A stretch of DNA of 64,000 nt from NCBI GenBank assembly GCA_964477895.1, contig CAYZFQ010000011.1, positions 23,825 through 87,824 on the forward strand. The letters are read 5' to 3'. Below the pieces are notes generated by a model, which saw only the letters and a program-made list of their open reading frames with translations, was not told where the DNA came from and did not search any database. Positions within the stretch are counted from its first letter, which is position 1. The number at the start of each line of letters is the position of its first letter. Below are positions 15,653 to 55,888 of the stretch, piece by piece. The position numbers and the translations under genes are program-made. Origin of the DNA: an uncultured Bacteriovoracaceae bacterium. Lineage in GTDB: Bacteria; Bdellovibrionota; UBA2428.

Positions 15653-15680
15653 AAGGCTCCTGACCGCACCTGTCATAACC

Positions 15681-18349: not shown

Positions 18350-18425
18350 GGGAGAATCGAACTCCCACGACCTTGCGGCCGGTGGATTTTGAGTCCACTG
18401 CGTCTACCAATTCCGCCATCAGGGC
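18339..18425 (-). tRNA. tRNA-Leu (anticodon CAA).
   Basis: The reverse complement reads GCCCTGATGGCGGAATTGGTAGACGCAGTGGACTCAAAATCCACCGGCCGCAAGGTCGTGGGAGTTCGATTCTCCCTTAGGGCACCA. It has a 7-bp acceptor stem with one G-U pair, the anticodon loop CTCAAAA, a long variable arm, the T-loop TTCGATT and an encoded CCA. It overlaps the ATPase stop codon. Confidence 0.8.
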
Positions 18426-37739: not shown

Positions 37740-37775
37740 GTATACATTGTATACGAAGTATGTATACAAAGTCAA
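37739..37775. promoter_or_regulatory. vapBC promoter/operator with three GTATAC palindromes.
   Basis: The minus strand reads TTGACT-n16-TATACA-n8-ATG. (T)GTATAC(A) occurs at 37739-37746, 37748-37755 and 37761-37768. Confidence 0.45.
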
Positions 37776-37854
37776 GGGACTGGATTATCGGGTTTTTCAA
37801 GGGAAACGAACGCAACTTTTGACGCGCCGTAAGCGTCGGACTACTCCAGATGTC

Positions 37855-38355
37855 ATGTCCATTTTGAACCGGATTTCGTCAGTTTTTCAAAAGAATGAGA
37901 CCGTCTTAAAGTCTCCCCTAAAAGGCACAGTCGTGCCGCTTGCCCAAGTTCCCGATGAGACTTTCGCGAGCAAGATACTCGGCGACGGCGTCGCAATCGA
38001 TCCCCTTGAGGGCATCCTGCTGTCGCCCGTGGACGGCGAAGTCGTGCAGGTGTTCCGCACGAACCACGCTGTGGGCCTTTTGAGCGCCTCGGGACTGGAA
38101 ATCTTGCTTCACGTGGGCATCGACACCGTGAAAATGAACGGCGAGGGCTTTCGAGCGCTCGTCAAGCCGGGTCAAAAAGTCAAAGCCGGCGATCGACTGC
38201 TGGAGTTCGACTTGGGCCTTGTGAAAGCCAAAGCAAAATCGGCCATCACGCCTATGGTTGTCACAAACATGGAGGTCGTGAAAAATCTCGAAAATCGCGC
38301 CACGGGCGCCATCGAAGCTGGCCAAGAACTCCTTCGCGTCGAAACGAAGGCCTAA
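37855..38355 (+). CDS. crr: PTS glucose-family EIIA component.
   Basis: VVPLAQVPDETFASKILGDGVAIDP...GLEILLHVGIDTVKMNGEGF is the classic EIIA-Glc sequence. I prefer the internal ATG at 37855 (166 aa). Confidence 0.85.
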   Translation: MSILNRISSVFQKNETVLKSPLKGTVVPLAQVPDETFASKILGDGVAIDPLEGILLSPVDGEVVQVFRTNHAVGLLSASGLEILLHVGIDTVKMNGEGFRALVKPGQKVKAGDRLLEFDLGLVKAKAKSAITPMVVTNMEVVKNLENRATGAIEAGQELLRVETKA

Positions 38356-38383
38356 ACCGGAAACTTAAGGAACGAGAGCAAAC

Positions 38384-38644
38384 ATGGAAAAGACTGTTCG
38401 AATCCTGAATGAAGAGGGCTTTCATGCCCGACCGGCCGGGGTCTTCGTGAAAAAAGCCACGGCTTTCGCCTCGGCCATTGAGGTCCGGCATAACGGCGCC
38501 TCGAAAAACGGCAAGTCGATCATGGCCCTCATGAGCCTCGGCCTCGCTAAGGATTCCGAAATCACCATCGCAGCCCAAGGCCCCGACGCCGACGCCGCCG
38601 TCACAGCCCTCGTCGACCTCGTGAATCGCAAGTTTCAAAACTGA
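38384..38644 (+). CDS. ptsH: Phosphocarrier protein HPr.
   Basis: GFHARPAG (His-15 region). 86 aa. Confidence 0.9.
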   Translation: MEKTVRILNEEGFHARPAGVFVKKATAFASAIEVRHNGASKNGKSIMALMSLGLAKDSEITIAAQGPDADAAVTALVDLVNRKFQN

Positions 38645-40383
38645 TGATTCTCGTCGGCAAAAGCGCTTCGAGCGGCATCGTCGTGGGTCGGGCCCTGCTC
38701 CTAAAGCAGGAAGCCCTTGTCGTCGAGGAAACCCGCGTCGACAACACGGACGTCGAAATCGCCAGATTCCGTCGCTCCATCGAGAAGTCCAAAACGGATC
38801 TCGGGACTGTGCGTGAGAACGCGCTTGCCACGATGGGGGCCGACAAAGCCGCTATTTTTGACGCTCACTTGCTCGTACTCGAGGATCCCGAGCTCATCGA
38901 CGAGACGGAGCGGATCATCCGCGACGACAAACTCAACGCCTCAGCAGCGTTTCGAAAAGTCTCCCAGAACTTCATCGTGATCTTTGACGCCATGGAAAAC
39001 GAATATATGCGCGAGCGGGCCGCGGACATCCGCGACATCTCGGACCGTGTGCTGCGGAACCTGGCCGGGCACAACGTCATGGACCTTTCAACTCTGACCG
39101 ACGAGCATATTGTCGTGTGCCACGATCTGACACCTTCCGAGACGGCCACGCTCAATCCCCAAAAGGTTCTGGGAATCTTGGCGGACATCGGAGGCAAAAC
39201 TGGGCACACCGCCATTATGGCCCGGACGCTCGAGATTCCGGCCGTCCTCGGCCTTCGCAAGATCACGCAGCTTGTGCGGAACGGCGACTGGATCGCCTTC
39301 AACGGCGAAACGGGCGAAGTTGTGATCAACCCCGACGAGAAAACGCGGGAAATGCACCTGCAGGCCCGCGCTCGAGAGCTTCAGGACAAAATCGAGCTAC
39401 AAAAGCTGATCGGGCTTCCAAATCAAACGCTCGACGGCCACACCGTGGGCCTCCTTGGGAACATCGGCAGCATTCAGGACCTCGGTGTCTTAAAAAAATA
39501 CGACGCTCGAGGCGTAGGCCTGTATCGCACCGAGTTCTTGTTCATGGATCACGCCCAGATGCCCACCGAACAGGAACAGTTCGTGGCTTATAAAGCCGTA
39601 CTCGAAGCCTTGCCGAGTCTTCCTGTGACGATTCGCACGCTCGACATCGGCGGAGACAAAGCCGTGCCGTATCTCGACATGGGCAAGGAAGAAAACCCGT
39701 TTCTGGGCTACCGCGCGATCCGCTACTGCCTGGAGCACCCAGAGGTGTTTCGTCCCCAGCTTCGCGCCCTGCTGCGAGCGAGCGTCTACGGCAACCTTCG
39801 CATCATGTTCCCGATGATCTCATCGCTCGACGAACTTCTGGCCGCCAAAGAGGCCGTGGCCTCGGTCCGCGCCGAGCTCGTGACGGAGGGCGTGTCCGTG
39901 GCCAACGATCTGCCACTAGGCGTGATGATCGAGATCCCTTCGGCGGCGATCATCTCAGACGTCCTTGCCCAGCATTGCGAGTTCATGAGCATCGGCACGA
40001 ACGACCTCATTCAATATGTTGTCGCCGTCGATCGCCAAAACGAACGCGTGCAGAACCTTTATGATCCTTTCCATCCGGGCGTGCTACGCCTGATCGCCAC
40101 GGTCATCGAAAACGGCCATAAATACGGCCGAAAAGTCAGCATGTGCGGCGAGATGGGCGGCAGCGAGCTGCACTTGCCGCTCTTGCTTGGACTCGGTCTA
40201 GACGAATTCAGCATGGCGCCGACCTACGTTCTTCGGGCCCGTCGGCAGTTGCGCCAATGGACAATCATCGAGGCCCGAAAACTCTCTCAAGACGTCCTGA
40301 AACGATCCCGCTCCGCCGAGATCGAAGCCCTCCTCACAGAAGCCCGCAATCAAAACGCTAAAGCAAAGAGGTCCTCACTATGA
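38644..40383 (+). CDS. ptsI: PTS Enzyme I (phosphoenolpyruvate-protein phosphotransferase).
   Basis: MILVGKSASSGIVVGRALLL. GGKTGHTAIMARTLEIPAV (active-site His). PEP-utilising domain. Confidence 0.9.
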   Translation: MILVGKSASSGIVVGRALLLKQEALVVEETRVDNTDVEIARFRRSIEKSKTDLGTVRENALATMGADKAAIFDAHLLVLEDPELIDETERIIRDDKLNASAAFRKVSQNFIVIFDAMENEYMRERAADIRDISDRVLRNLAGHNVMDLSTLTDEHIVVCHDLTPSETATLNPQKVLGILADIGGKTGHTAIMARTLEIPAVLGLRKITQLVRNGDWIAFNGETGEVVINPDEKTREMHLQARARELQDKIELQKLIGLPNQTLDGHTVGLLGNIGSIQDLGVLKKYDARGVGLYRTEFLFMDHAQMPTEQEQFVAYKAVLEALPSLPVTIRTLDIGGDKAVPYLDMGKEENPFLGYRAIRYCLEHPEVFRPQLRALLRASVYGNLRIMFPMISSLDELLAAKEAVASVRAELVTEGVSVANDLPLGVMIEIPSAAIISDVLAQHCEFMSIGTNDLIQYVVAVDRQNERVQNLYDPFHPGVLRLIATVIENGHKYGRKVSMCGEMGGSELHLPLLLGLGLDEFSMAPTYVLRARRQLRQWTIIEARKLSQDVLKRSRSAEIEALLTEARNQNAKAKRSSL

Positions 40384-41915
40384 AAATATTCTCCACACTT
40401 CAGAAGCTAGGCAAATCCCTTATGCTCCCGGTCTCAGTCTTGCCCGTGGCCGGTATTCTCCTGGGCGTCGGCGGGGGCTTCCTTGCGAGCGCCGACAAAA
40501 CGGGTCTCACGCTAAGCCCCACTGTTCGCACCGTGCTCGAGATCATGCAGAATTCGGGTGGCTCGATTTTCGGCGCCCTCGCGCTGTTGTTTGCGATCGG
40601 CGTAGCGCTTGGTTTCACTGACGACGACGGCGTCGCAGGCTTGGCGGGTGTCGTGGGCTTCGTTGTGCTTCAAGGCACGCTCGGCACGCTCGCAAAAGCT
40701 TTCAACGTGACGACCACCAAGGTCCTAGGCATCGACTCCATCAACACCGGCGTCGCGGGCGGCATCATCGCCGGCCTCATTGCGGCTTACATGTTCAACC
40801 GTTTTTACCGAATCAAACTTCCCTCTTATCTAGGCTTTTTCGCGGGCAAGCGCTTCGTGCCGATCGCCACGGCGTTTGCCTCGATCCTGGCTGGCGCAGT
40901 GCTCATCGTTATTTGGCCTCCCATCGGCCGGGGCATCGACGCCTTCTCTCAATGGGCCTCGAAGGAAAATCTGCTTTTGGCCACGGGCCTGTACGGGATC
41001 GTCGAGCGCTCTCTCATTCCACTCGGCCTGCATCATATCTGGAACGTGCCCTTCTTCTTTGAAATGGGTCAGTACTATCAACCTCTGCAGCCCGGCGTGG
41101 ACTGCGCCGTAGAAGCCGCTCGCACGAACGCCGAGATGTGCAAGCTCGTCACGGGCGAGATCCCGCGCTTCTTCGCGGCCGACCCGACGGCCGGCAATCT
41201 GGCCGGGGGCTTCCTTTTCAAGATGTTCGGCCTTCCGGCTGCGGCCATCGCCATGTGGCATTGCGCGCGTCCCGAAAAGCGCGCCGTCATCGGGAGTCTC
41301 ATGATCTCGGCCGCTTTCACGAGCTTTTTGACCGGCATCACGGAGCCCATTGAGTTCTCGTTCCTCTTCGTGGCCCCAATTCTTTATGTCTTCCACGCGC
41401 TCTTAGCCGGAGGCGCGTTCGTCCTCACGAACCTCGTCGACGCCAAGCTGGGCTTTGCTTTTTCGCATGGCGCGATCGACTACGTCTTACATCACTTCGT
41501 GAGCGGCCTCGGCCGCAACCAGCTCTTGATCATTCCCCTGGGCCTTGCTTACGCAGCCGTGTATTACACGGTCTTCCGTGTAGCCATCACCAAATTGAAT
41601 CTCATGACCCCTGGACGCGAGGCCGATGATGTCTCGAAACCCGCGGCCTCAAAGTTGATGGCAGGACAAGGCGAATTGGCTGCCGAGCTTATCGCGGCCT
41701 TCGGAGGCAGTGCGAACATCGCGAGCCTTGATGCCTGCATCACACGCTTGCGCATTGAGGTGAAAGAGATCGAGCGCGTGGACCAGGCCCGAATCAAGGC
41801 CCTCGGCGCGGCAGGCGTATTCGTGAGCGGCAACGGGATTCAAGCTGTCTTCGGAACTCGCTCGGACAACCTCCGCTCCGACATGGCCGAACTCATAAAA
41901 AAATCAGCGCTATGA
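40380..41915 (+). CDS. PTS glucose/GlcNAc-family EIICB permease.
   Basis: Polytopic EIIC followed by an EIIB domain with LDACITRLRIEV (phospho-Cys). ATGA overlap with ptsI. Confidence 0.85.
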   Translation: MKIFSTLQKLGKSLMLPVSVLPVAGILLGVGGGFLASADKTGLTLSPTVRTVLEIMQNSGGSIFGALALLFAIGVALGFTDDDGVAGLAGVVGFVVLQGTLGTLAKAFNVTTTKVLGIDSINTGVAGGIIAGLIAAYMFNRFYRIKLPSYLGFFAGKRFVPIATAFASILAGAVLIVIWPPIGRGIDAFSQWASKENLLLATGLYGIVERSLIPLGLHHIWNVPFFFEMGQYYQPLQPGVDCAVEAARTNAEMCKLVTGEIPRFFAADPTAGNLAGGFLFKMFGLPAAAIAMWHCARPEKRAVIGSLMISAAFTSFLTGITEPIEFSFLFVAPILYVFHALLAGGAFVLTNLVDAKLGFAFSHGAIDYVLHHFVSGLGRNQLLIIPLGLAYAAVYYTVFRVAITKLNLMTPGREADDVSKPAASKLMAGQGELAAELIAAFGGSANIASLDACITRLRIEVKEIERVDQARIKALGAAGVFVSGNGIQAVFGTRSDNLRSDMAELIKKSAL

Positions 41916-43312
41916 ACCACGTCTTTCCACCTGGCTTCGTCTGGGGATCTGCTACGGCCGCCATCCAAGTCGAGGGCGCCGCTCGAGAAGACGGTAAAGG
42001 ACCCTCGAATTGGGACGTCTTTTGCCGCGAGCATCCGGAACGGATTTACGATCGCGGAAGTCCCGAGGTGGCTTGCGATCATTACCACCGCTTCCGCGAA
42101 GACGTCGGTCTGATGAAAGAAATGGGACACACGGGCTATCGCATGTCGATCGCCTGGACCCGCATTTTTCCCACGGGCGAGGGCCCTCTCAATACCGAAG
42201 GCGTCCGCTTTTACCGCGAGCTTTTCGCCGAGTTGCTCGCGCAGGGCATCGAGCCGAACGTCACGCTTTATCATTGGGATTTACCCCAGGCTCTAGCCGA
42301 GCGCGGCGGTTGGGAGAACAAAAGCACCATCCAGGCCTTCGAAAAATACGCCCGCACCTGCTTTGAACTTTTTGGCGACCAAGTCCGCCTCTGGTCCACA
42401 CTGAATGAGCCTGGGTGGACGACTCTCCAAAGCTACGTGACCGGCCTCCACCCCCCCTGCAAAACGGATCAGCGCGCAGCCATACAAGTTGCGCATAATT
42501 TTTTGGTGGCTCATGCTCGGTCCGTTGCGGCCTTTCGCGAGTCCGGGTGCCCTGGGCTGATCGGGCTCGTGCTCAACATGTCCACCGTTTATCCCGCCAG
42601 CCAAGATTCAGCCGACGCAGATGCCGCACGCATCGCCGACGGCATTCTGAATCGCTGGTTTATCGATCCGGCGCTGAAAGGCTGTTATCCCGACGACATA
42701 TGGCAACTCTATAAATCCTGCGGGCTCTTGCCCGAGCATACACCCGAGGAGCTTGAGCTCTTCGGGCGCCACACGATCGACTTCATTGGCGTCAACTATT
42801 ACTACCCCCACTTCGCGAGCGCCGACGCCCAAGAATCCGCGTATCATCTGAACACCTCGGGGGATAAAAACGAGGACTGCAAATTCTCGATCCGCGGCCT
42901 TTTTCGCTTCGTGAAGAATCCAAACGGACGCTTCACGGATTGGGGCTGGGAGATTTATCCCGACGGCCTCTATGATTTACTGATGCGGGCCCACGAGTAC
43001 CGACCCGGCATTCCTGTTTACATCACCGAGAACGGAATCGGACAGCATGAGTCGCTCGACCAGAACGGCGAGCTCAACGACGATGGACGCATCGAGTTCG
43101 TTCGCGAACATCTCAAGGTGGCCCACCGTGCGTGGCGCGACGGCGTGAATCTGAAGGGCTATTACATGTGGGCGCTCATGGATAATTTTTCGTGGGTCAA
43201 CGGTTTCAAAAAGCGTTACGGATTTTTGTTTGTGGACCGCGTGACACTCGATCGAACAATCAAGGCAAGTGGCCGCTGGTATCGCCAGGTCTCCGAGGCG
43301 AACGGGTTTTAG
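41912..43312 (+). CDS. Glycoside hydrolase family 1 (beta-glucosidase / 6-phospho-beta-glucosidase).
   Basis: FVWGSATAAIQVEGA, TLNEPG and ITENGIG (the two catalytic Glu regions). ATGA overlap with the EIICB gene. Confidence 0.85.
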   Translation: MNHVFPPGFVWGSATAAIQVEGAAREDGKGPSNWDVFCREHPERIYDRGSPEVACDHYHRFREDVGLMKEMGHTGYRMSIAWTRIFPTGEGPLNTEGVRFYRELFAELLAQGIEPNVTLYHWDLPQALAERGGWENKSTIQAFEKYARTCFELFGDQVRLWSTLNEPGWTTLQSYVTGLHPPCKTDQRAAIQVAHNFLVAHARSVAAFRESGCPGLIGLVLNMSTVYPASQDSADADAARIADGILNRWFIDPALKGCYPDDIWQLYKSCGLLPEHTPEELELFGRHTIDFIGVNYYYPHFASADAQESAYHLNTSGDKNEDCKFSIRGLFRFVKNPNGRFTDWGWEIYPDGLYDLLMRAHEYRPGIPVYITENGIGQHESLDQNGELNDDGRIEFVREHLKVAHRAWRDGVNLKGYYMWALMDNFSWVNGFKKRYGFLFVDRVTLDRTIKASGRWYRQVSEANGF

Positions 43313-46110: not shown

Positions 46111-46536
46111 ATGGAAAATGTCCACAACAGTACGAAACCCCAAACTCCACTTCTTACGGTGGATGTTTTAATTGATATGGGCGCAGGTCTTTTGGTCTTG
46201 GTGGAACGCAAGAACGAGCCCATGGGCTGGGCCATTCCCGGAGGTTTTGTAGATATAGGCGAAACAGTTGAGGAAGCCGCCCTGAGAGAAGTTAAGGAAG
46301 AAACCGGCCTTGATGTGGAACTTGTGAGACAGTTTCATGTCTATTCGGACCCCAAACGTGACGCGCGTGGCCACTCGGCCTCGGTGGTCTTTGTAGCTCG
46401 AGGCTGGGGCGAGCCCCGAGCCGCCAGCGATGCCAAAAATGTCGGGCTTTTCCATGAAGGAAATTTGCCCCCTGAAATTTGCTTTGATCACCGGCAAATC
46501 CTTAGAGACTACTTCACGGAACGCTACCCCCTCTGA
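46111..46536 (+). CDS. Nudix hydrolase.
   Basis: Nudix box [24 protein letters not shown]. Confidence 0.8.
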
Positions 46537-47660
46537 TGTCGGAGAAAATCCTTCCTCGCATCCTCATTGTGGATGACGAAAAAGACAACCTCGAAACCTT
46601 AAAGCGTTTGCTGCGTAAAGATTTTTTAGTTGAGACTTTCACTTCGGGTGAGGCGGCCTTAGAAAAATTCCGCGCCGATCCACACTTTGATGTGCTTTTG
46701 TCGGACCAACGCATGCCTGGAATCTCGGGATCGGAATTCTTTGCCAAAGCGCTCAATGTTAATCCTCTGCCCACCCGCATTCTTTTAACCGGTTACGCCG
46801 ACCTAGAGGCTGTGACCGAAGCCATCAACTTAGGTCATATTTGGAATTACCTCGCCAAACCCTGGGAGCCCACCGAACTGTTACGAATTCTAAAGCTTGG
46901 AGCGGAGCGGGCCCAGATGCAGGCCTCTCTTGAGAGTTCCCGGCGAGAACTACAGAAAGCCGTGCGCGAACTCCGAGCTCGAGATTGGGCGAGGCGACGC
47001 AGTTTCCAGGTTCTTCTTCATGAATTTCGAACGGTCCCCCAAATCCTCCAAGGTATTCGCGACTTAGGCAGTGACGAGGACACGTCGGTGGTCCGGGAGC
47101 AGTTTTTTGAGTCTCTTTTGGGGCGTTTTCGCACCTTAGAAAGTGAAATTGTAGAAGTCTTAGACGAAGAAAAATCTTGGGCCGCTCTATCGCGGCAAAA
47201 TTTCTCGCTAGCGAATTGGCTTCCTCTTTTGTGTGGGAATATTTCTCTACCCCCACCCACAATTTCTCAGGACCTAGAACTCTATTCCAATGTGGAACTT
47301 TTAACCGAGGACATCTCCCAGATTGCTGAACTCCTGCGAAAAAACACAGCCCAAGCCCCACTGGAAATTAACATCGAAAATAACCTCCTTGTTTTTTCCC
47401 TCTCGGCCCCCACGGCTCCCTATCCGGAAGCCTTGGCTCGTGAGGACCTCGATCTTGAAATCGCTTGGCCCGCCCTTATCGAGCCCTTTGTGGGTGCCGA
47501 GGACTTCACTCGGCATTCTCAGGGACTGCGCTTTGACCTTTCACGGCGAATCCGTCGCTTGGCCGCCCTAGGGGTGCGCGTAGAGTTTCAGATTCAAAAA
47601 GAACCCCACAATTTCAAGGTAGAAGCCCTGCTCACTTTGCCCACTGAAATCTTGGCATAA
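46536..47660 (+). CDS. Response regulator: CheY-like receiver with an uncharacterised ~250-aa C-terminal domain.
   Basis: ILIVDDEKDN...VLLSDQRMPGISG...LLTGYAD...LAKP are the receiver residues. Start overlaps the Nudix stop. Confidence 0.7.
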   Translation: MSEKILPRILIVDDEKDNLETLKRLLRKDFLVETFTSGEAALEKFRADPHFDVLLSDQRMPGISGSEFFAKALNVNPLPTRILLTGYADLEAVTEAINLGHIWNYLAKPWEPTELLRILKLGAERAQMQASLESSRRELQKAVRELRARDWARRRSFQVLLHEFRTVPQILQGIRDLGSDEDTSVVREQFFESLLGRFRTLESEIVEVLDEEKSWAALSRQNFSLANWLPLLCGNISLPPPTISQDLELYSNVELLTEDISQIAELLRKNTAQAPLEINIENNLLVFSLSAPTAPYPEALAREDLDLEIAWPALIEPFVGAEDFTRHSQGLRFDLSRRIRRLAALGVRVEFQIQKEPHNFKVEALLTLPTEILA

Positions 47661-47679
47661 GATTTGTAAGGGCATTCCC

Positions 47680-48900
47680 ATGCCCGGGATTATTTTTTCA
47701 GGTTTTTTAGTTTTGGCTTTGGGTGAAAGTTACACTTTTCCCCGTGCTTCCAACACTATTTGGGTTTCGAGCCCCACCTTTGCCGAGACCCAAGTCAAAG
47801 ACGGATCCTTAATTGTGAAAGCAAAGACTGAGGGTGCCTTTTACATCTCCGGTCTGCGTGGTTTTCTCGATCCTCAAAAGATTGTTGTTATAGATGCGCA
47901 AAATTTTTTAGCGTTAAAAAAGTGCCCCGAAGCGCCGCTAAAATTCTCGGAGTCGACTCGTCTGGAACTGGGGCACTACTCTCTGGAGAATCTCAAAAGT
48001 CTGCGTGACTGCGGCTTTCAAAAGATTCGCCTAGGAAAAGACGATCAAAGGCTCAGTGAGTCGCTCTTTTTGACTCGAGAAGCTGCGGCCCGTGAGAAAG
48101 GTTTAAACTTTTCCCACAGCTTTTTTGAGAAGGGTTTGCGAGTTTTAACATTTTCCCAGCCCCAACCCTCGCTTTCTCAAGCTCAAATTTCATTGGATGA
48201 TCTTTATCCCTTCTACGAATTGCGGGGGCGCGAGGGCCCCCGCCCCGGCCGTACTCTCATTTTTCATCTCACCCTTTTTGAGTTTTCCCGCGCCAAGGCC
48301 CAGGCTTTGGGTGTCACCCTCCCCACCCAAATGCAGCTGAATAACCTGCAGGGGCCTAAGGCTCTGGGGATTGGGGTGGATTTTGGAGAGGCTCTCGGGA
48401 TCGGAAAAATTTTAGCCCAGCCGCAGATTCGCACAAAGCCAGGGGAGAAAGCCACCTTTCAAAGCGGAGGAGAGATTCCGATTCCTCAGCGCAGTCTCAG
48501 CAGTGCCCAGACTCTGTGGAAAAATTATGGACTCCTTATAGAACTCGAACCCGATGCCCAACTTCGTAGCGGCGATCCCGAAATCTCTCTACGATTCAAG
48601 GCGGAATTTTCAGAACCCGACCAGGGACTCTCTATTGGGGGGGTGCCAGGCATGCTCACTCGCCGACTCGAAAGTAACTTTGATCTGCGCTGCGATGAAG
48701 AAACGGTGCTGAGCACACTTCTACAGAGTCGGCGCGGCCAGAACCGCCGAGGTCTAGCTGCTCTCACTCAAATTCCACTTTTAGGCCGACTTTTCTCAAA
48801 CGAGCAAAACAACGAACAATCCTCCGAGCTCTGGTTTGCCCTGCGCCCAAGCTGGGAGGAAATAAAGGTTTCCTCTGAATGGACAAAAAAAACTCTTTAA
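47680..48900 (+). CDS. Secretin (type II/IV-pilus/Tad-type outer-membrane channel, CpaC/RcpA-like).
   Basis: Signal peptide. The C-terminal secretin domain reads ...ILAQPQIRTKPGEKATFQSGGEIPI...YGLLIELEPD...GGVPGMLTRRLESNFDLRCDEETVLS...IPLLGRLFS. Confidence 0.7.
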   Translation: MPGIIFSGFLVLALGESYTFPRASNTIWVSSPTFAETQVKDGSLIVKAKTEGAFYISGLRGFLDPQKIVVIDAQNFLALKKCPEAPLKFSESTRLELGHYSLENLKSLRDCGFQKIRLGKDDQRLSESLFLTREAAAREKGLNFSHSFFEKGLRVLTFSQPQPSLSQAQISLDDLYPFYELRGREGPRPGRTLIFHLTLFEFSRAKAQALGVTLPTQMQLNNLQGPKALGIGVDFGEALGIGKILAQPQIRTKPGEKATFQSGGEIPIPQRSLSSAQTLWKNYGLLIELEPDAQLRSGDPEISLRFKAEFSEPDQGLSIGGVPGMLTRRLESNFDLRCDEETVLSTLLQSRRGQNRRGLAALTQIPLLGRLFSNEQNNEQSSELWFALRPSWEEIKVSSEWTKKTL

Positions 48901-49763
48901 CTGTGATCCACGAACTTGTTTCTGATCCCAGGGTTGAGGATTTGCTCCTGAATCCGGAAGGGGTCTTCGCCTATCGCGAAGGCCGTTGGTCTGATGCCTT
49001 AAGTCCTCTCAGCGCGGCTCAGCTTAATGAATGGTCGAGAAAAATCGCCGAACATAGTGGGCAAAATTTAGGACTGACCCAGCCCACCGTGGATGCCTTT
49101 TTGCCCTTTGAAGGAAAATATTTTTTTAGGGCTCATGTGGCTATTTCACCTCTGGTCTTAGCGGGTCCGGTCATCACTTTGCGTCGCCTGCCTCAACTCG
49201 AGGCTTTCTCATTTCGTGATTTTAAAATTCCCCCTCTCTTAGCTGCGCAACTCAGTCGCGGCATCACGGACGGACTTTCTTTTTTAATTTGCGGAAGCAC
49301 GGGATCCGGCAAAAGCAGCTTTCTCACGGCTCTACTACGTCAGGTCGACTCGCATGAACGAGTTCTTATTTTAGAAGACAGTCCAGAACTTCCCCTCCCC
49401 AATGCTCTCTCTACCAAACTCCTTTGCCGTAACGATCGCTTCGGATTTCGAAACGGGGCGACTTGGGACTTGAGTCACCTCCTCTTTGAAAGTCTGCGCA
49501 TGCGTCCCGACCGTTTGGTATTGGGAGAGTGTCGGGGCACTGAGGCCTATGCCGTAGCCCAAGCTCTTCACACGGGACACCGTGGAATCTTCACAACCCT
49601 TCATGCTGGAAGTTGCCTCCAAGGACGCAGGCGCTTTGAGGAACTTTGCCGGGCACACCCCGATTACTCCACACTTCACTTTGAAGAACTTTGGGACTTT
49701 GTCATTTTGCTATCGGAGAATTCCCAAGGGCAGCGCGAAGTCAAAGAATTCTGGAAAAAATAA
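48879..49763 (+). CDS. VirB11/CpaF/TadA-family secretion ATPase (compact, 294 aa).
   Basis: Walker A FLICGSTGSGKSSFL. ILILEDSPEL. DRLVLGECRGTEA. His box GHRGIFTTLHAGS. 22-nt overlap with the secretin gene. Confidence 0.75.
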   Translation: MDKKNSLTVIHELVSDPRVEDLLLNPEGVFAYREGRWSDALSPLSAAQLNEWSRKIAEHSGQNLGLTQPTVDAFLPFEGKYFFRAHVAISPLVLAGPVITLRRLPQLEAFSFRDFKIPPLLAAQLSRGITDGLSFLICGSTGSGKSSFLTALLRQVDSHERVLILEDSPELPLPNALSTKLLCRNDRFGFRNGATWDLSHLLFESLRMRPDRLVLGECRGTEAYAVAQALHTGHRGIFTTLHAGSCLQGRRRFEELCRAHPDYSTLHFEELWDFVILLSENSQGQREVKEFWKK

Positions 49764-49764
49764 A

Positions 49765-50667
49765 ATGCCTGCCTCTAAGAAAATCTCTCAGCTAGCCCTC
49801 AGCTTGGAAATCGTGCTTTTGCGTATTCAAAGCGGCCAGTGCCTCAGCCAAGCTCTCAGACAATTGCCGTCTTTTTCGATGCCCCGTGGACTTTGCGAAA
49901 ATTGGCTTAACCTTCGTCAGCAAATGGAGGAGGGTCGAATCTCCTGCGAACTCGGCCTTAAGTCTTACATTGATCAACTGCGCCTGGAAGAAGAGTTGCT
50001 GGCAAAACTCCACGAGAAAACCCTCCTTCCAAAACTCCAGCTTTACCTTATCATCGCAGGTGCCCTGGCTTTTGGATCAAGCACTCAGTTTTTTTATCCT
50101 CCCCATCTCCAACCCCAACCTAGCCAGTGTGCTTGGTCTTTGGTCTTGCTCGCAACCGCGGCGTTGTGGATGCATTGGGAACTTCGACGCTTTGCGAGCC
50201 AGCTCTGGTATTGTGAATGGATATTCTTCCTCTCTCGACTTCGGGCCCAGCTGGTCTGGGGCCAAACGCTGAGCTCTTCATTTGCAAAAAGTTACTCCAA
50301 AAAGGAGCTGGGCCGCCTACCCAGCTCCCTCAAGGACAGCCTGATTCAATTTGCCACTCACCTTCACCAGGGGCAAATTGATCGCTTTGCTACCGAAAGT
50401 GGAAGAAAAAACTTTCAGGCTTTTTCTGAAGAATGGAAAGTTCAAGAAGAGCTTTGTGCCATGGCCGACCTTGAAGCCCAAGGCCAAGGCCTGGCTGTCT
50501 ATATCGAAAAAACAATCAGTCTTTCGCACTCCACCTTTGAGCGTAAACTTTCTCTGCAAACACAGATTCTCAGTTTGCGGCTCTTAGCCCCACTTTTTTT
50601 ATTCTGTGTCCCCTCTTTTTTATTGATCATCTTTGCCCCGCTGCTGAATGCGCTGAAAGCACTCTAA
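49765..50667 (+). CDS. TadB/TadC/GspF-like inner-membrane platform protein (putative).
   Basis: ATG immediately after the ATPase stop. GspF-like segment LSLEIVLLRIQSGQCLSQAL. C-terminal transmembrane helix LLAPLFLFCVPSFLLIIFAPLL. About 300 aa. Confidence 0.45.
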   Translation: MPASKKISQLALSLEIVLLRIQSGQCLSQALRQLPSFSMPRGLCENWLNLRQQMEEGRISCELGLKSYIDQLRLEEELLAKLHEKTLLPKLQLYLIIAGALAFGSSTQFFYPPHLQPQPSQCAWSLVLLATAALWMHWELRRFASQLWYCEWIFFLSRLRAQLVWGQTLSSSFAKSYSKKELGRLPSSLKDSLIQFATHLHQGQIDRFATESGRKNFQAFSEEWKVQEELCAMADLEAQGQGLAVYIEKTISLSHSTFERKLSLQTQILSLRLLAPLFLFCVPSFLLIIFAPLLNALKAL

Positions 50668-50774: not shown

Positions 50775-51257
50775 ATGTCTAATCATGAGCACTTTAGTAA
50801 ATTCTCTAAGCAATACTTTCGAAACTTTTTCAAAAGGTGGCATCGGGAATGGGGGCGGTCTCGGCCCTTTATTTTTATACATCTTAATTCTCAAAATTTT
50901 GAACTGACTTTTGTGGACGAACTAGCGACTGGAGATTTATCCACGATTCTCGAGAATCCTCGCAGCCTCCACCTTAAAATGAGAGCTTTTCGAGTTCAGG
51001 CTGGATTGTCGCAGCAAGAATGGGCAAAGAAACTGGGAGTATCTGCTTCCAATGTCACAAAAATCGAACGGGGAAGCCGAGAACCTGGCCTGAAGATTAT
51101 TCGAAAATTTTGCGAATACGTGGCGACATGCTCTGCGCCTCCAACGATAGATAGCACCAGCACTACGGATTCACAGACTCCAAAGAAGCGAAGTCTTCCC
51201 GGAGTAGACGACGATACGGCCATATTAAAATGGCTTAGCTCCCTGCGGCGCCGGTGA
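50775..51257 (+). CDS. XRE-family helix-turn-helix protein.
   Basis: LKMRAFRVQAGLSQQEWAKKLGVSASNVTKIERGSREP (HTH_XRE). Lies between two 26-bp inverted repeats. Confidence 0.6.
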   Translation: MSNHEHFSKFSKQYFRNFFKRWHREWGRSRPFIFIHLNSQNFELTFVDELATGDLSTILENPRSLHLKMRAFRVQAGLSQQEWAKKLGVSASNVTKIERGSREPGLKIIRKFCEYVATCSAPPTIDSTSTTDSQTPKKRSLPGVDDDTAILKWLSSLRRR

Positions 51258-51270
51258 ATCGAAGCCTTGG

Positions 51271-51296
51271 GTGGTAAAAAATGACTAAGTCCTACA
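51271..51296. repeat. Right copy of the 26-bp inverted repeat (GTGGTAAAAAATGACTAAGTCCTACA).
   Basis: Exact reverse complement of 50702-50727. Confidence 0.8.
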
Positions 51297-51339
51297 TGAG
51301 ACGAGGACGCATAATCTATAAGCCGCAAAGCTACCGGCA

Positions 51340-52290
51340 CTAGATCTCCAAAATATTTTTCTTTGCGGGACCCTCTAACAATTCTTTAGGCAAAGATTCC
51401 AAAATGCATTTTTCCAGGGCACCCAAAATATCCGTCTTCCACTGCTCTCGTCGATAGACCAGAGAAATCTCCCGTACCGGTTGCGCACCGGCAAAACTTC
51501 GAAGCTGCGATTTCTTCTCAGCCGAAGTGAGGTGCTCTACAAAAAGCTGGGGCAGCAAAGTGTATCCCCGGCCTCGAAGTATTAAGTAGCGTAGGGTTTC
51601 TAAATTGGCCCCCTCAAAGTGAATATTTTTATAAAGACTTCGAGTGCCACGGGGTGTGCACAGGTGAATGACCTGATTTCTCAAGCAGTGTCCGTCCTTA
51701 AGAAGCCACAAGTCTTCACCCTTAAGATCCTGCGGTCGAATTTCCTGGAGCCTTCCAAGTGAAGAGTTTTTGTGAAAGTACAAATAGAACCTTTCGTAAA
51801 ATAGCTTTCTCTCGAACAAGACTTTCTCATGAAGTGGGGTGGCTAAAATCGCGGCGTCGAGCTGGTCTTTGACCAAGGCCTCTACACAGTCTTCGGTCTT
51901 CATTTCATCCACTAGTAAGTCCACCTGAGGAAAGTCCTTTGAAAATTGTCCTGCAAAAAGAGGCAACAAATAGGGAGCCAGGGTTGGAATCATAGCCAGA
52001 CGAAAGTCTCCACTTAGGATTTTTTCGTCGGCACGACTCATATGCAAAAGCTTATTGTGTTCTCGAAGAACAGCCTGAGCCTGATCAATAAATCTTCGAC
52101 CTTTGTCGGTGGCCAAAATGGGTTTTTTCATCCGATCGAATATCAGAAAACCGATCTCCGCTTCCACCTTCTGAATTTGCATGCTCAAACTGGGTTGGGA
52201 GATGTGACAATGCCTTGAAGCCTGGGCGAAATGCCGAAATTTATCAACGGCCACAATATATTCTAACTGGCTTAGGGTGGGCATAAGCAC
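51340..52290 (-). CDS. oxyR: LysR-family regulator, OxyR-like.
   Basis: N-terminal HTH MPTLSQLEYIVAVDKFRHFAQASRHCHISQPSLSMQIQKVE. GHCLRNQVIHLC gives the Cys-x8-Cys redox pair spacing of OxyR. Divergent from ahpC. Confidence 0.8.
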   Translation of the reverse strand: MLMPTLSQLEYIVAVDKFRHFAQASRHCHISQPSLSMQIQKVEAEIGFLIFDRMKKPILATDKGRRFIDQAQAVLREHNKLLHMSRADEKILSGDFRLAMIPTLAPYLLPLFAGQFSKDFPQVDLLVDEMKTEDCVEALVKDQLDAAILATPLHEKVLFERKLFYERFYLYFHKNSSLGRLQEIRPQDLKGEDLWLLKDGHCLRNQVIHLCTPRGTRSLYKNIHFEGANLETLRYLILRGRGYTLLPQLFVEHLTSAEKKSQLRSFAGAQPVREISLVYRREQWKTDILGALEKCILESLPKELLEGPAKKNILEI

Positions 52291-52301
52291 TCCTTCATTT
52301 T

Positions 52302-52337
52302 ATAGCTTTAAACTATCATTATATAGAAACAATCGAT
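52302..52337. promoter_or_regulatory. Putative OxyR binding site in the oxyR-ahpC divergent region.
   Basis: The sequence ATAG-n7-CTAT-n6-ATAG-n7-CGAT is close to the ATAG-n7-CTAT-n7-ATAG-n7-CTAT consensus. Confidence 0.45.
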
Positions 52338-52405
52338 TTTATATATCTTAAAATTTGGGCCATAGTCAGATCTTCAACCCACTAAAAATTTTAGGAGAAA
52401 ACAAA

Positions 52406-52939
52406 ATGTTAGGAATAGGAAAAAAGTTCCCAGATTTTAAGGTCAAAGCCACAGTGTCCACCGACCCCAAAACCGCCTTTGCGGATATCACTCGCCATGA
52501 TTTCAAAGGGAAGTGGCTTGTGCTCTTTTTTTACCCTAAGGACTTCACCTTCGTGTGCCCCACCGAGATCAAGGCCTTCGGCGACTTAAACGGTCAATTT
52601 AAAGACCGTGACGCTCAACTTCTTACAGCCAGCGTGGACTCAGAATTTGTTCACTTGGCTTGGCGGCAAAATCATGCCGATTTAAAGGACTTGCCCATCC
52701 CCATGTTGGCCGACGTCAAACGAGACCTCTCCACCCAATTGGGCATTTTAGACGAAAACGAAGGTGTCTCTCAAAGAGCCACCTACATCGTGGACCCCGA
52801 TGGCATCATTCGTTTTGTTTATGTGACAGATCTTAATGTAGGTCGAAATCCCAAAGAAGTCTTACGAGTACTCGACGCTTTGCAAACGGATGAACTCTGT
52901 CCCTGCAACTGGGAAAAGGGTCAAAAAACTTTAGGATAA
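52406..52939 (+). CDS. ahpC: 2-Cys peroxiredoxin AhpC.
   Basis: FTFVCPTEI peroxidatic-Cys motif. AGGAG n8 ATG at 52406. Resolving Cys near the C-terminus (ELCPCNWEKG). Confidence 0.9.
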   Translation: MLGIGKKFPDFKVKATVSTDPKTAFADITRHDFKGKWLVLFFYPKDFTFVCPTEIKAFGDLNGQFKDRDAQLLTASVDSEFVHLAWRQNHADLKDLPIPMLADVKRDLSTQLGILDENEGVSQRATYIVDPDGIIRFVYVTDLNVGRNPKEVLRVLDALQTDELCPCNWEKGQKTLG

Positions 52940-52951
52940 TAGGAGGACCCT

Positions 52952-53473
52952 GTGAATCAGATTAGAGAAAAACTAAAAGACTACGCCAAGGATCAAAAAC
53001 TTAACTTAGAGGCGGTGCTGAGCGAGGAAGGCGCTCCGGGCCTCAGCATAGTCCAGCTCTGGGGGGTGGCTCTGGCCTCGGCCTACTTTACAAAAAATCC
53101 GGAGCTCGTGAGTGCCATCGCTAGCGAATCAGCACCGCATCTAAATGCGCAGACCTTAGAGGCCGCCAAAGCCGCTGCCACTGTCATGGCCATGAACAAC
53201 ATTTACTACCGCTTTCTGCACCTGAGTGAAGACAAAGAATATGGCAAAATGCCTGCGAAGTTGCGGATGAATATTTTAGCTCGTCCCGTTATTCCTAAAG
53301 TGGATTTTGAACTGATGGCCTTGGCCGTGTCGGCTCTATCGGGTTGCGGCCTTTGCATCAACTCGCACGTGGCCGAAGTTAAAAAGGCAGGAGTGACTAA
53401 CGAGGGAGTGCAGTCGACGGTGCGTATCGCAGCTGTATTAAATGCCACAGCTCAAGCTCTCAGCATTAACTAA
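52952..53473 (+). CDS. ahpD: Alkylhydroperoxidase AhpD-family (carboxymuconolactone decarboxylase family) protein.
   Basis: LSGCGLCINSHV carries the AhpD CxxxH motif (CINSH). Confidence 0.8.
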   Translation: MNQIREKLKDYAKDQKLNLEAVLSEEGAPGLSIVQLWGVALASAYFTKNPELVSAIASESAPHLNAQTLEAAKAAATVMAMNNIYYRFLHLSEDKEYGKMPAKLRMNILARPVIPKVDFELMALAVSALSGCGLCINSHVAEVKKAGVTNEGVQSTVRIAAVLNATAQALSIN

Positions 53474-54094: not shown

Positions 54095-55240
54095 TTAAAA
54101 GCGATATTCCGCTCCGCCGCAAATCCAGGCATAAAAACTAGAAGAAATTAAGGTCCTCAGTCCCGCGTAAGCCAAGATTTGGGGACTAAAAGAGTAGGTC
54201 CCCCGCACTCCTAAATTGAGCCGAAGTCCACTTGTTCCACTTCCCAGTCCCTCGGCATCCATGACCTCTTTGGTGAATCCATTGTTGTTAATTTGCGAAC
54301 GCACATAGGTGAATCCGGCCTCCGGAGCCACACCCCAAGGACCCGGGCTCGGCAGAAAAAAATACCGACCCAAAAAAGAATAAGTGTAATATTTAACGGC
54401 TAGAGTCCGCGTGCCCGAAGACAATTTTTCTCCCATAAAATAGCCAAAGAGAAAGGCGGCCTCAATTCGATCGCTCGGGCGCCCGGCTAAGCCCTTTGGA
54501 TATAAATTCATCGAGTAACCCAAGGCCAAACCGGCATTGTAACCTTGGTTGGCGTAAAGCACTTCAGTCGCCACCGAGTGCATGGAGCCCCGGGGAATCC
54601 GATCTTTTTTATCTAATTTGACATAGGCTGAGGGGAACCACCCCTCTTCGCCGGTTATTTTTAGACGCAGCTTCGACCATTTTTTATTCGAGCTTTTTTG
54701 CACGATCACAACTTCGTCACCTTTTTCAATGAGTCCATAACGCTCAGCCATGGCGAAGGGAGACTGAAAAAATTGGCCACCTCGAGCGGCAATGTAGCGA
54801 TCGTCTTTGGGATCACCCTCGTCGATGAGCTCGTCGTCCAGCTCATTGTCGAGTTCCGCGGCCCTTGGGTCCTCGTCGGACTCGTCTTGAAAGGGAGCGG
54901 GCTTGGGAAAATTTTCATCGTTCTCTGGAGCGGGCGGGAGAGGCTCGGCCCCCGGAGCTGTGGCAATAGAGCCCCCTAGAGAAATATCACTTCGGCGGAC
55001 CCATCCCATTTGAGACCCTACTTTGACCTTTATCCAGGCCCCTGGAGCCTTGCCGATGGCCTCCATACCCTGCCCAGCGCTGAGCTGGCGCAAGGTGACA
55101 GCGCCCGCCTGAGGGGAGCTTTTAAGGGGAACCTGACCGAGGGTGCTTACTGGCAAGGCGCTAGCCGCGAGACCGTAAATGAGGCCAATAGCGACGCCTA
55201 GCCCGCGAAAAGATTGATAAATCACATCCCCACCCTTCAT
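54095..55240 (-). CDS. Outer-membrane beta-barrel protein with two N-terminal SH3-like domains (hypothetical).
   Basis: Signal-like N-terminus. Two SH3b-like segments (GAWIKVKVGSQMGWVRRSDISL; GWFPSAYVKL) separated by an acidic linker. Alternating beta-strand pattern, and the protein ends ...AEYRF with a terminal Phe. Confidence 0.5.
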   Translation of the reverse strand: MKGGDVIYQSFRGLGVAIGLIYGLAASALPVSTLGQVPLKSSPQAGAVTLRQLSAGQGMEAIGKAPGAWIKVKVGSQMGWVRRSDISLGGSIATAPGAEPLPPAPENDENFPKPAPFQDESDEDPRAAELDNELDDELIDEGDPKDDRYIAARGGQFFQSPFAMAERYGLIEKGDEVVIVQKSSNKKWSKLRLKITGEEGWFPSAYVKLDKKDRIPRGSMHSVATEVLYANQGYNAGLALGYSMNLYPKGLAGRPSDRIEAAFLFGYFMGEKLSSGTRTLAVKYYTYSFLGRYFFLPSPGPWGVAPEAGFTYVRSQINNNGFTKEVMDAEGLGSGTSGLRLNLGVRGTYSFSPQILAYAGLRTLISSSFYAWICGGAEYRF

Positions 55241-55294: not shown

Positions 55295-55888
55295 ATGGCG
55301 TTATTTAAGGGGACGCCTCAAAATATGAATATTAATGCAGATTCCTCTGTGCCTTCCGTTGGTTCAGTTCTAATTTTGGAGGACGAGATTCTCATGAGCG
55401 CTCTCCTTGAGAGATACATCCAGAATCTTTCATCAACGGGCCGATATGGAGTTTTAGAACCCGTGGTTTTCCACTCGGGCTTAGACCTCCTCAATCAAGA
55501 CCTAAGTCACTACCGAGTCGCGGTTGTGGATATCCTCCTTCCCCAAATTACGGGCCTCGATTTAATCAGAGACTTTAAAGGCCGCTTTCCTCAAATGGGT
55601 CTTGTTCCCATTTCAGGCATGGCCACCATAACAATGCAGCGTACGCTCAAAGAAATACTTCCCGCGGGAACTGAACTTCTCGCCAAGCCCCTCCACAAAG
55701 AAGCCTTTAACCAAGCCTTTGATAAGGCATGGCTAAATTCCTTTAATCAGCAGCTCCAGCCACGCCCGTCTCACCCCTTGAAGGAGGGGGAAGAGGAACT
55801 GTGGACGGCTGGGAAGTCCCTCAACACGCTTGAGATACCCACCTTGCACCGGAAGCTGCTCCGTAAAAAGACCGGAACCGACAGCTAA
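55295..55888 (+). CDS. Single-domain response regulator (CheY-like receiver).
   Basis: VLILEDEILM...VAVVDILLP...VPISG...LAKP are the receiver residues. Possible later start at 55325. Confidence 0.6.
   Translation: MALFKGTPQNMNINADSSVPSVGSVLILEDEILMSALLERYIQNLSSTGRYGVLEPVVFHSGLDLLNQDLSHYRVAVVDILLPQITGLDLIRDFKGRFPQMGLVPISGMATITMQRTLKEILPAGTELLAKPLHKEAFNQAFDKAWLNSFNQQLQPRPSHPLKEGEEELWTAGKSLNTLEIPTLHRKLLRKKTGTDS

Follow-up and report, generated by a model that had tools for sequence, protein, structure and literature searches.

A compact secretin-ATPase-platform gene trio conserved in Bdellovibrionota, probably a minimal Tad-like basal body

The closest described counterparts of the genes considered here belong to the Tad/Flp systems (type IVc), known as Cpa in Caulobacter, Tad in Aggregatibacter and Rcp/Tad in P. 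aeruginosa. These systems have the Flp pilin, TadV, TadZ/CpaE, CpaB/RcpC, TadD and TadE/F/G, they use the single-repeat platform proteins TadB and TadC together, their RcpA/CpaC-type secretin has pil_N/BON domains at its N-terminus, and their ATPase CpaF carries an N-terminal region of about 130 aa. A type II secretion system comprises GspD with domains N0-N3, GspE, a GspF of ~400 aa, the pseudopilins GspG-K and GspC/L/M. The P. aeruginosa flp-tad-rcp locus is adjoined by the PprAB two-component system, of which PprB is a DNA-binding regulator. In PilC and GspF, each chain contains a tandem pair of T2SSF repeats along with three TM segments, and in type IV secretion a VirB11-type ATPase is accompanied by VirB4/VirD4 and VirB6-10. 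To our knowledge, every characterized machine that combines T2SSE, T2SSF and secretin proteins uses polymerization of pilins or pseudopilins. For obligate predators of the Bdellovibrionota type, attachment to prey and its invasion depend on pili.

Among predatory bacteria, the Myxococcus Kil machine and its Bdellovibrio counterpart are Tad-derived; their genes are distributed over several loci, and the machines have been linked to contact with prey (PMC8460266, PMC12075869). The canonical Tad/Kil set of B. bacteriovorus is split between Bd0110-0114 and Bd0470; the Kil and Bd0111 ATPases are true CpaF orthologues, accompanied by two platform proteins and CpaB (PMC8460266, supplementary file 2). 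Four flp genes are scattered over the B. bacteriovorus genome, and Bdellovibrio genomes have been reported without TadV (PMC5430801). Such scattering of T4P/Tad genes is the norm in BALOs (PMC3818213, PMC8460266), whose genomes contain a number of incomplete T4b sets as well as orphan cpaF genes (PMC3818213). One orphan pair of strain HD100, listed as "bd3306 pilQ / bd3307 cpaF", is described as associated with pili; bd3307 appears in the list of Type IVb pilus genes that are down in host-independent strains compared with attack-phase HD100 (PMC3818213). We found mention of this pair in that paper only, with no function reported, and the Tn-seq supplementary tables searched, apparently predation-fitness lists, contain the neighboring Bd3304 only and none of Bd3305-Bd3309.

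Within a 64-kb stretch of DNA, referred to here as the window, a receiver-domain protein, a secretin, an ATPase and an inner-membrane platform protein are encoded one after the other on the plus strand, directly behind a NUDIX hydrolase gene (46111..46536, plus strand; Pfam NUDIX E 5e-20). Re-checking of the open reading frames reproduced the four genes with the coordinates and junctions given in a preliminary description of this DNA, and a public protein collection holds all four proteins with identical sequences and starts. As read from the sequence, a 19-nt spacer separates the receiver-protein gene from the secretin gene, the secretin and ATPase genes overlap by 22 nt, and a single base separates the ATPase stop from the platform ATG at 49765. 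Since the NUDIX stop and the start of the receiver-protein gene overlap as TGATG, the latter is translationally coupled to NUDIX. The NUDIX gene, found in the equivalent position in six loci including one that lacks the receiver-protein gene (L008), is part of a conserved AlaDH-NUDIX backbone and not of the machine, and in the source genome it probably heads the transcript. No sigma-70-like promoter was found between 45.8 and 51.4 kb, the region shows no enrichment of terminator-like sites, and Rfam detected no regulatory RNA across the window, its only match there being one tRNA. A hairpin that resembles a terminator and spans the secretin start codon (47670-47685) was considered as an attenuator and rejected at a fold z-score of -0.85.

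The ATPase (294 aa; 48879..49763, plus strand) matches Pfam T2SSE with an E of 2.1e-27 and comprises an NTD and a CTD. The preliminary description had depicted a compact enzyme with all Walker and His-box motifs, and this picture stands: the protein has all four motifs (Walker A, Asp box, Walker B and His box), which remain invariant in 30 family members that share 37-62% identity. Among solved relatives, CpaF/TadA comes closest in both sequence and fold. A PDB sequence search gave CpaF at E 1e-22 with VirB11 next, and the AF2 model (pLDDT 92.7) has TadA/CpaF 8rjf as its top Foldseek match (TM 0.79 over 295 columns). In contrast to CpaF, the window ATPase lacks the N-terminal extension of about 130 aa, and its NCBIfam scores lie far below the family cutoffs. 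The best of these matches, all under their cutoffs, are the TadA-family model TIGR03819 (139.9 bits, cutoff 373), VirB11 (117 bits) and TrbB (110 bits), the last two being nearly as good as TadA. Relatives of the protein form ~94 clusters of 287-323 aa, separated by a clear score gap; unlike the Kil and Bd0111 enzymes, they constitute a separate short clade. Taken from sequence and model, these features point to a core-only, CpaF/TadA-like hexameric traffic ATPase. Whereas VirB11-type ATPases of type IV secretion operate with VirB proteins, the window ATPase is accompanied by a secretin and a T2SSF protein, and no T4SS genes occur in the window.

The gene preceding the ATPase indeed encodes a secretin, as initially proposed, and a compact one (406 aa; 47680..48900, plus strand; Pfam Secretin E 1.4e-21). 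The secretin domain occupies aa 241-390, while no Pfam domain is matched by the first 235 aa, which begin with a short hydrophobic stretch, a probable atypical signal peptide. Two cysteines of the divergent N-terminal region, C82 and C110, are conserved in eight orthologues (alignment A6) and absent from the secretin of a cousin locus (L011); weak pil_N/BON marks are seen in cousin secretins only. Among solved structures, 8jvb and RcpA, the secretin of Tad (8odn), come nearest, and the gene order secretin-ATPase-platform parallels cpaC-(cpaE)-cpaF-tadB of Tad. Models for GspD, GspE and PilB score far below cutoff for the window proteins, and motif scan and Pfam revealed no T2SS partners (pseudopilins, GspC/L/M) in the window.

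The platform protein (300 aa; 49765..50667, plus strand) has three hydrophobic TM segments at about residues 86-116, 114-141 and 267-300. Pfam T2SSF matches it in two stretches with 34.9 bits (cutoff 25.2), and 7/8 platform orthologues match T2SSF as well. Both the third and the fourth reading frame of the preliminary description agree with the expected models. Taken alone, the N-terminal halves give a weak T2SSF match in 4/8 orthologues. Alignment of the N-terminal against the C-terminal half with hhalign yielded a probability of 91% and an E of 9e-7 with a 50-sequence alignment, and an E of 1e-4 with 8 platform sequences. The protein can thus be best described as two predicted, internally duplicated T2SSF-like repeats within 300 aa, following the logic of PilC/GspF, although it is about 100 aa shorter than these and its first repeat is barely seen by Pfam. 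With both repeats in one chain, a TadB/TadC pair is not needed. Only one T2SSF gene is found in the window and in every orthologous locus. Of the "one GspF/TadB-like platform" suggested earlier, the single T2SSF gene is therefore retained, while the half-against-half comparison argues against a lone TadB. The family is narrow and fast-evolving: a phmmer search of 1.84 billion representatives returned 63 relatives only, with full-length members of ~285-305 aa and a few shorter fragments, and no canonical T2SSF protein or protein of canonical length among them. Identity among eight aligned orthologues is 21-29%, a word-indexed search recovered the self match only, and a PDB profile search with the platform alignment (A2) gave nothing meaningful.

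Order and overlaps or short gaps of the three genes are kept in eight distinct orthologous loci of Bdellovibrionota-labelled assemblies. This recurrence of order and tight coupling is far beyond chance, and the conserved unit is the trio, which is invariant and always tightly linked in the loci examined. Most trio loci share a backbone of AlaDH-NUDIX … SH3-OMP, REC, rpsA, sppA and HIT. A conserved orphan receiver of 197 aa is encoded in the window at 55295-55888. The receiver-protein gene is present in 5/9 loci and absent from 3/9; it is accessory, and its absence from these three indicates that it is not essential to the machine. Sister modules near metK display the same minimal logic, and in the cousin locus L011 a secretin-ATPase pair is adjoined by a bona fide REC-HisKA-HATPase_c protein. 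The HD100 pair bd3306/bd3307 resembles the window in that an orphan secretin is followed by cpaF, and judged by its description it may represent this module or a sister of it. The trio is a real conserved core (pore, motor ATPase and one platform) in predatory Bdellovibrio-type bacteria, and a variant, uncharacterized so far, of a known kind of pilus/secretion machine.

Components that would complete a Tad, T4P or T2SS apparatus were searched for around the trio. When the window (in six frames) and the related loci were scanned for motifs, no pilin-like ORF emerged; motif scans of window and loci and Pfam on the window ORFs gave neither a Flp prepilin nor a TadV prepilin peptidase, and the gene tables of window and loci contain no ParA/MinD-like (TadZ/CpaE) or CpaB-like genes. 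Pfam detected no Tad, T4P or T2SS domains in the 41 other window ORFs, which represent nearly all ORFs of at least 150 aa between 1 and 64 kb. Pilin, peptidase, TadZ and a second platform gene are absent over 46 kb upstream and 13 kb downstream of the module, and the same components are missing within 8-10 kb at the orthologous loci. CpaB/RcpC, a pilotin and minor pilins were not found near the trio in the nine loci examined; nor do TadD, TadE/F/G or any Kil accessory genes accompany the window module. The earlier claim that no pilin, prepilin peptidase, TadZ/CpaE or second platform gene is adjacent consequently extends to the 64-kb window and eight orthologous loci, and the flanking 46 and 13 kb show no standard tad operon adjoining the module. 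What was found, a secretin with a CpaF/VirB11-like ATPase and one T2SSF protein, bears out the notion of a stripped-down set resembling Tad and type IV filament systems, which may, as also suggested earlier, serve as a dedicated device for secretion or for a pilus. Small basic ORFs beside the sister modules (L012, L013) were considered as Flp pilins and discarded, being K/R-rich and without a hydrophobic segment.

We favor, with reasonable confidence, the view that Bdellovibrionota have inherited this core vertically as a lineage-specific Tad-like basal body of minimal composition, with pilins in trans and an accessory phosphorelay input. It would consist of an RcpA/CpaC-type outer-membrane secretin, a core-only CpaF-like hexameric ATPase and one two-repeat platform. 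By homology, ATP hydrolysis in the hexamer would drive the platform, by which pilin-type subunits would be inserted, and possibly extracted, at the inner membrane, and these subunits would form a short fiber or pseudopilus through the secretin. Fiber subunits and prepilin peptidase would be encoded elsewhere in the genome and used in trans, as their absence from the locus suggests. Since no pilin or peptidase lies near the trio in nine loci, the use of trans-encoded pilins enters this scheme as an assumption; supply in trans is nevertheless the probable route.

It is doubtful, by comparison, that the three proteins serve as spare or alternative parts, that is, as paralogues plugging into a canonical Tad/Kil or T4a apparatus, for example to supply motor and pore at a particular stage. 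In that case they would share CpaB, TadZ, pilotin and pilins with the canonical apparatus, an arrangement we consider unlikely. The incomplete T4b sets and orphan cpaF genes in BALO genomes and the lack of any alignment or pilotin component in the trio are in line with such sharing. However, pore, platform and motor all come with the trio, and such components normally contact each other and evolve together. In addition, all three are highly diverged relative to their canonical counterparts, with the platform phmmer search reaching no canonical T2SSF protein and the ATPase devoid of the CpaF N-terminal region.

The systematic absence of pilin, peptidase and alignment genes beside the trio, both at nine loci and in sister modules of two types, might also hint at a pilin-independent, self-sufficient trans-envelope conduit that exports or imports cargo such as predation effectors or DNA without a fiber. 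The unusually reduced ATPase and platform and the Bdellovibrio genomes reported without TadV fit this picture, yet BALOs normally have their T4P/Tad genes scattered, the conserved neighborhood contains no candidate cargo gene, and the characterized T2SSE, T2SSF and secretin machines known to us work by pilin or pseudopilin polymerization. We therefore regard a conduit of this type as quite unlikely. Its more specific version, a Bdellovibrionota family of pilin-less three-protein machines forming a fiber-free gated predation conduit that is switched by a REC-pseudokinase phosphorelay, is distinctly improbable; if true, this family would represent a new functional class with its origin in the type IV filament superfamily. 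The incomplete component set, the fast evolution of the platform and the degenerate kinase domain of the receiver protein could be invoked for a tad operon in decay that no longer functions. Such a remnant is highly improbable given ORFs that are intact and translationally coupled at every locus, ATPase catalytic motifs invariant at identities down to 37%, full-length platform relatives of uniform length and synteny held across deep Bdellovibrionota lineages.

If the minimal basal body is autonomous, it would be among the smallest diderm type-IV-filament basal bodies known to us, with a pore, a motor and one 300-aa platform, and it would offer a tractable minimal model of ATPase-platform coupling. 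Conserved across a predator phylum and never characterized, the trio makes a concrete candidate for a surface device related to predation.

The phosphorelay input proposed for the basal body concerns the receiver protein (374 aa; 46536..47660, plus strand), with which the trio would be co-transcribed in the source genome and in about half of its relatives. The receiver (Pfam Response_reg E 1.7e-19, 70.5 bits) retains an intact phospho-acceptor set of D13, D14, D57, T85 and K108; in 8 homologues (alignment A1), D13, D14, D57 and K108 are invariant and position 85 is T or S. It is the sole Pfam match of the protein: HisKA and HATPase_c are not detected in it, and HATPase_c is matched by 0/8 members. 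The AF2 model (pLDDT 78.8) nevertheless displays a long helical hairpin and an alpha/beta sandwich behind REC, and the top Foldseek match is the full-length Leptospira REC-HK hybrid LvrB (8vc9; identity 12-13%), with which the protein has the order of N-terminal REC, DHp and CA fold in common. In the DHp hairpin, H162 is invariant within LLHEFRTxPQ and aligns with the phospho-His of ThkA 3a0r, a PDB profile match, and with the H-box His of the REC-HK from L011. The CA-like domain keeps N270, while the G1 box is lost ("VDTGKP" in the L011 homologue, "LSAPTAP" in the window protein) and the G2 box is degenerate ("GTGLGL" and "SQGLRF", respectively). Sequence and model thus identify the C-terminal part as a predicted diverged histidine-kinase core of DHp and CA-like domains. 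A TadZ/CpaE-like ParA domain, also considered for this region, was rejected on the DHp and CA fold given by model and Foldseek.

The preliminary description had seen a response regulator with an unknown output domain and inferred two-component control. The receiver and its intact acceptor site are upheld, whereas the output is a kinase-like rather than a DNA-binding domain, and control would not be of the classical transcriptional type. The protein is not a transcription factor, and with an HK-like output, control would be exerted by a phosphorelay or protein-level input. As with PprAB, two-component genes are here linked to a Tad-like locus, but in the form of a fused REC-pseudoHK without a DNA-binding domain. 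ChpT and Spo0B are phosphotransferases derived from histidine kinases, and the lost ATP-binding boxes of the window protein recall them. With a receiver that would be phosphorylatable and a kinase-like half that keeps its His but lacks the ATP-binding boxes, the protein is, by this analogy, most likely a phosphotransfer/phosphatase node following ChpT/Spo0B-like logic or a phosphorylation-controlled binding partner of the machine. Its full-length alignment with the L011 REC-HisKA-HATPase_c protein (30% identity, E 2e-41) sets a REC-pseudokinase beside a bona fide REC-HK, and the pair may illustrate how, in connection with an envelope machine, a kinase can degenerate and become an adaptor or phosphotransfer protein.

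Re-derivation of the ORF coordinates placed the four adjacent genes of the module where the preliminary description had put them. The receiver protein (RR, 374 aa, 46536-47660; Pfam Response_reg, E 1.7e-19) is followed by a secretin (406 aa, 47680-48900; Secretin, E 1.4e-21), an ATPase (294 aa, 48879-49763; T2SSE, E 2.1e-27) and a membrane platform protein (300 aa, ATG at 49765, end at 50667), which matches T2SSF above the Pfam cutoff (34.9 versus 25.2 bits); the failed T2SSF match that would have refuted the preliminary description was thus not observed. A public protein collection holds identical sequences with identical starts for all four. The NUDIX gene upstream (46111-46536) ends in a stop codon that overlaps the start of RR (TGATG), and a 19-nt spacer, read from the sequence, separates RR from the secretin gene. 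The junction sequences display the 22-nt overlap by which the ATPase starts inside the secretin end and the near-contiguous stop-ATG before the platform (TAA-A-ATG), as described earlier. A hairpin at 47670-47685 (6-bp, GC-rich, then a U-rich run, with the 3' arm spanning the secretin start codon) showed no significance against shuffles (z -0.85).

Comparison across genomes identifies the secretin-ATPase-platform trio as the conserved unit. Its gene order is constant in eight distinct orthologous loci (ten were retrieved, with L001, L004 and L007 repeating the window, L003 and L006), and its junctions vary between overlaps of up to 28 nt and gaps of up to 14 nt. Close relatives of the ATPase form ~94 clusters of 287-323 aa at 37-62% identity, and a drop in score (180 to 140 bits) sets them apart from ordinary proteins of the CpaF family. 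The organism labels of these relatives, where given, are Bdellovibrionales, Bdellovibrionota or 'bacterium'; one orthologous locus is labelled as a Bacteriovorax stolpii MAG.

The catalytic motifs of the ATPase are invariant in 30 of 30 aligned members: Walker A (G139-x-T-G-x-G-K145), the Asp box (E166 D167), the Walker B region (R209 P210 … G216 E217 C218 R219) and the His box (G233 H234 … H242). Among solved structures, CpaF is the closest in sequence (E 1e-22), with VirB11 next; NCBIfam ranks the TadA-family model TIGR03819, VirB11 and TrbB in this order, every score lying far under its cutoff. The AF2 model (pLDDT 92.7) aligns with the NTD+CTD core of TadA/CpaF at a TM of 0.79 across all 295 columns, followed by VirB11, FlaI and archaeal GspE. 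The protein is a core-only CpaF-like motor that lacks the ~130-aa N-terminal part of CpaF. In the secretin, the secretin domain occupies aa 241-390; among solved structures it is closest to 8jvb and to RcpA, a Tad secretin (8odn), with PilQ next. The N-terminal 235 aa gave no Pfam match; pil_N and BON, which are typical of CpaC/RcpA, are weakly marked in the secretins of the cousin and sister loci L011 and L012. The orthologue alignment displays a short hydrophobic N-terminus, probably an atypical signal peptide, and two cysteines kept in eight orthologues and absent from the L011 cousin.

The platform is fast-evolving, with 21-29% identity among eight aligned orthologues, and a word-indexed search returned its self-match only. 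Exhaustive phmmer against 1.84 billion representatives retrieved 63 relatives, none of canonical platform length; the full-length ones measure ~285-305 aa and align end-to-end, next to a few shorter fragments. T2SSF is matched by seven of the eight orthologues, and hydropathy indicates three TM segments. Profile alignment of the N-terminal half with the C-terminal half gave a probability of 91% (E 9e-7), the halves share the motif "Le.i..R..sG.Tl.qAl…W..lr..i..G", and N-halves alone match T2SSF weakly in 4/8. The protein is therefore a two-repeat PilC/GspF-like pseudo-dimer packed into 300 aa. The single platform gene claimed previously thus stands as one T2SSF gene, corrected to an internally duplicated one; since it holds both repeats, no second TadB/TadC-like gene would be needed.

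The REC domain of RR retains D13, D14, D57, T85 and K108. The C-terminal 250 aa are confined to their own family (eight matches, all REC plus the same domain), whose alignment displays invariant LLHEFR(T)xPQ (H162), N270 and EPFxG…H..GLR; Pfam gave a faint HEF_HK signal only. The AF2 model (pLDDT 78.8) comprises REC, a long helical hairpin and an alpha/beta sandwich, its top Foldseek matches are to the full-length REC-histidine-kinase hybrid LvrB, and a PDB profile search (E 0.008) placed H162 on the phospho-His of ThkA, a sensor kinase. The cousin locus L011 supplies the decisive evidence: a bona fide REC-HisKA-HATPase_c protein (372 aa) directly precedes a secretin and a CpaF-like ATPase of 380 aa, and it aligns with RR over the full length (30% identity, E 2e-41). 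H162 falls on the H-box His and N270 on the N-box Asn, while the G1 box is lost (DTG to SAP) and the G2 box is degenerate (GTGLGL to SQGLRF). RR therefore joins a receiver to a module of kinase origin, in which ATP binding has probably been lost. No DNA-binding domain was found in RR, and its input would be phosphorelay, phosphatase or protein-protein contact. The gene is carried by the window, L002, L003, L006 and L009 and is missing from L005, L008 and L010; RR is dispensable in some lineages. Of the two-component control proposed initially, the intact receiver is retained, but the "unknown output domain" now appears kinase-derived and control by RR does not extend to the three loci without it.

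Related minimal sets occur elsewhere. The second-tier ATPases (313 aa, ~35% identity) lie directly after a secretin, beside metK, as in the sister modules L012 (7706-11241, Bdellovibrionota label) and L013 (7451-12205). Each has a mini-platform of ~345 aa nearby on the opposite strand, matched by the platform HMM at E 2.6e-12 and 3e-5. Minimal secretin-motor-platform sets thus recur in this bacterial group. Both also keep a tiny basic ORF (40-42 aa) in the interval from metK to the secretin. The L011 module (7452-11143; GCA_963852775.1, 3.9-Mb contig; 447-aa secretin) has no platform gene within 10 kb on either side.

The Tad/T2SS-like reading of the preliminary description is largely right, refined by the two-repeat platform, the kinase-derived RR module and the trio as the unit. 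We consider it fairly probable that the module encodes a compact and autonomous basal body of Tad-like type, which would polymerise pilin-type subunits encoded at other sites and receive an accessory input of phosphorelay type. It is not the canonical Tad/Kil system of B. bacteriovorus (Bd0110-0114 and Bd0470), in which two platform proteins and CpaB accompany a true orthologue of CpaF (PMC8460266, supplementary file 2) and which has been linked to the attachment to prey and its invasion (PMC5430801, PMC6561027). That the trio supplies interchangeable parts for canonical Tad or T4a machines seems unlikely. No credible pilin emerged when all six frames of the window were scanned for Flp motifs and class III signal peptides, and Pfam detected no Tad, T4P, T2SS or T4SS domains in 41 other ORFs (nearly all of at least 150 aa, 1-64 kb), reaching 46 kb upstream and 13 kb downstream of the module. 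A pilin-like ORF, CpaB, TadZ and peptidase are absent from all orthologous loci examined, so the absence of an adjacent pilin, peptidase or TadZ reported at first holds in the window and beyond it. A pilin-independent conduit is, to our judgment, more doubtful still. The flp genes are dispersed, and Bdellovibrio genomes reportedly lack TadV (PMC5430801), which makes the use of pilins in trans plausible in these organisms. A decaying remnant is very improbable because the ATPase motifs are invariant, the ORFs are intact and coupled, and the synteny is deep.

The orphan "bd3306 pilQ / bd3307 cpaF" pair, which the literature mentions a single time and notes as pilus-associated (PMC3818213), may represent this module or a sister of it. 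The list of pilus-related genes with lower expression in host-independent strains than in attack-phase HD100 includes bd3307 (PMC3818213); Bd3305-3309 were not in the Tn-seq supplementary tables searched. In databases the module is labelled piecemeal (CpaF, secretin) and is uncharacterised.

In most loci, the backbone comprises GT2, alanine dehydrogenase (minus strand) and NUDIX genes upstream, and a convergent ~200-aa lipoprotein, an SH3/beta-barrel protein, a small REC-like protein, rpsA, sppA and HIT downstream. L009 has an extra 367-aa gene (5611-6714; weak Glyco_hydro_32N match) between RR and secretin. In the window, HTH_3 (XRE), LysR (minus strand), AhpC and AhpD-like (CMD) genes lie between the platform and the conserved lipoprotein (50775-53473), a lineage-specific insertion beside the module, as orthologous loci are without it. 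The SH3-domain protein (54095-55240, minus strand, 381 aa) has a C-terminal half resembling an outer-membrane beta-barrel, ending ...YRF, and aligns solely with the C-terminal 330 aa of its L003 orthologue; elsewhere, SH3-type proteins at this position measure about 380-710 aa and are in most loci convergent to the trio. The stand-alone REC-like protein (55295-55888, 197 aa), whose gene directly precedes rpsA in nearly all loci, scores weakly against Pfam REC (27 bits), but its acidic pocket, Asp, S/T and K positions can be recognised; we speculate that it is a possible phosphotransfer partner of RR.

Further away, a PTS/beta-glucoside block (37663-43312; EIIA, Enzyme I, EIICB and a GH1 6-phospho-beta-glucosidase-like gene) has a G+C of 0.585-0.589 versus about 0.45-0.51 over most of the window. 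The block resembles a sugar-uptake island gained by horizontal transfer, an unusual feature in a genome of Bdellovibrionota type. At 13018-18425, in a stretch of lower GC (0.44), tRNA-Leu(CAA) (minus strand, 18339-18425) directly adjoins the gene of a DUF4143/AAA_14 ATPase, with a DUF4423 gene near; this may be an integrated element. A single 568-aa ORF at 18921-20627 combines two complex I domains, NuoB (20 kDa) and NuoD (49 kDa), and seems to encode a fused NuoB-(C)-D subunit.
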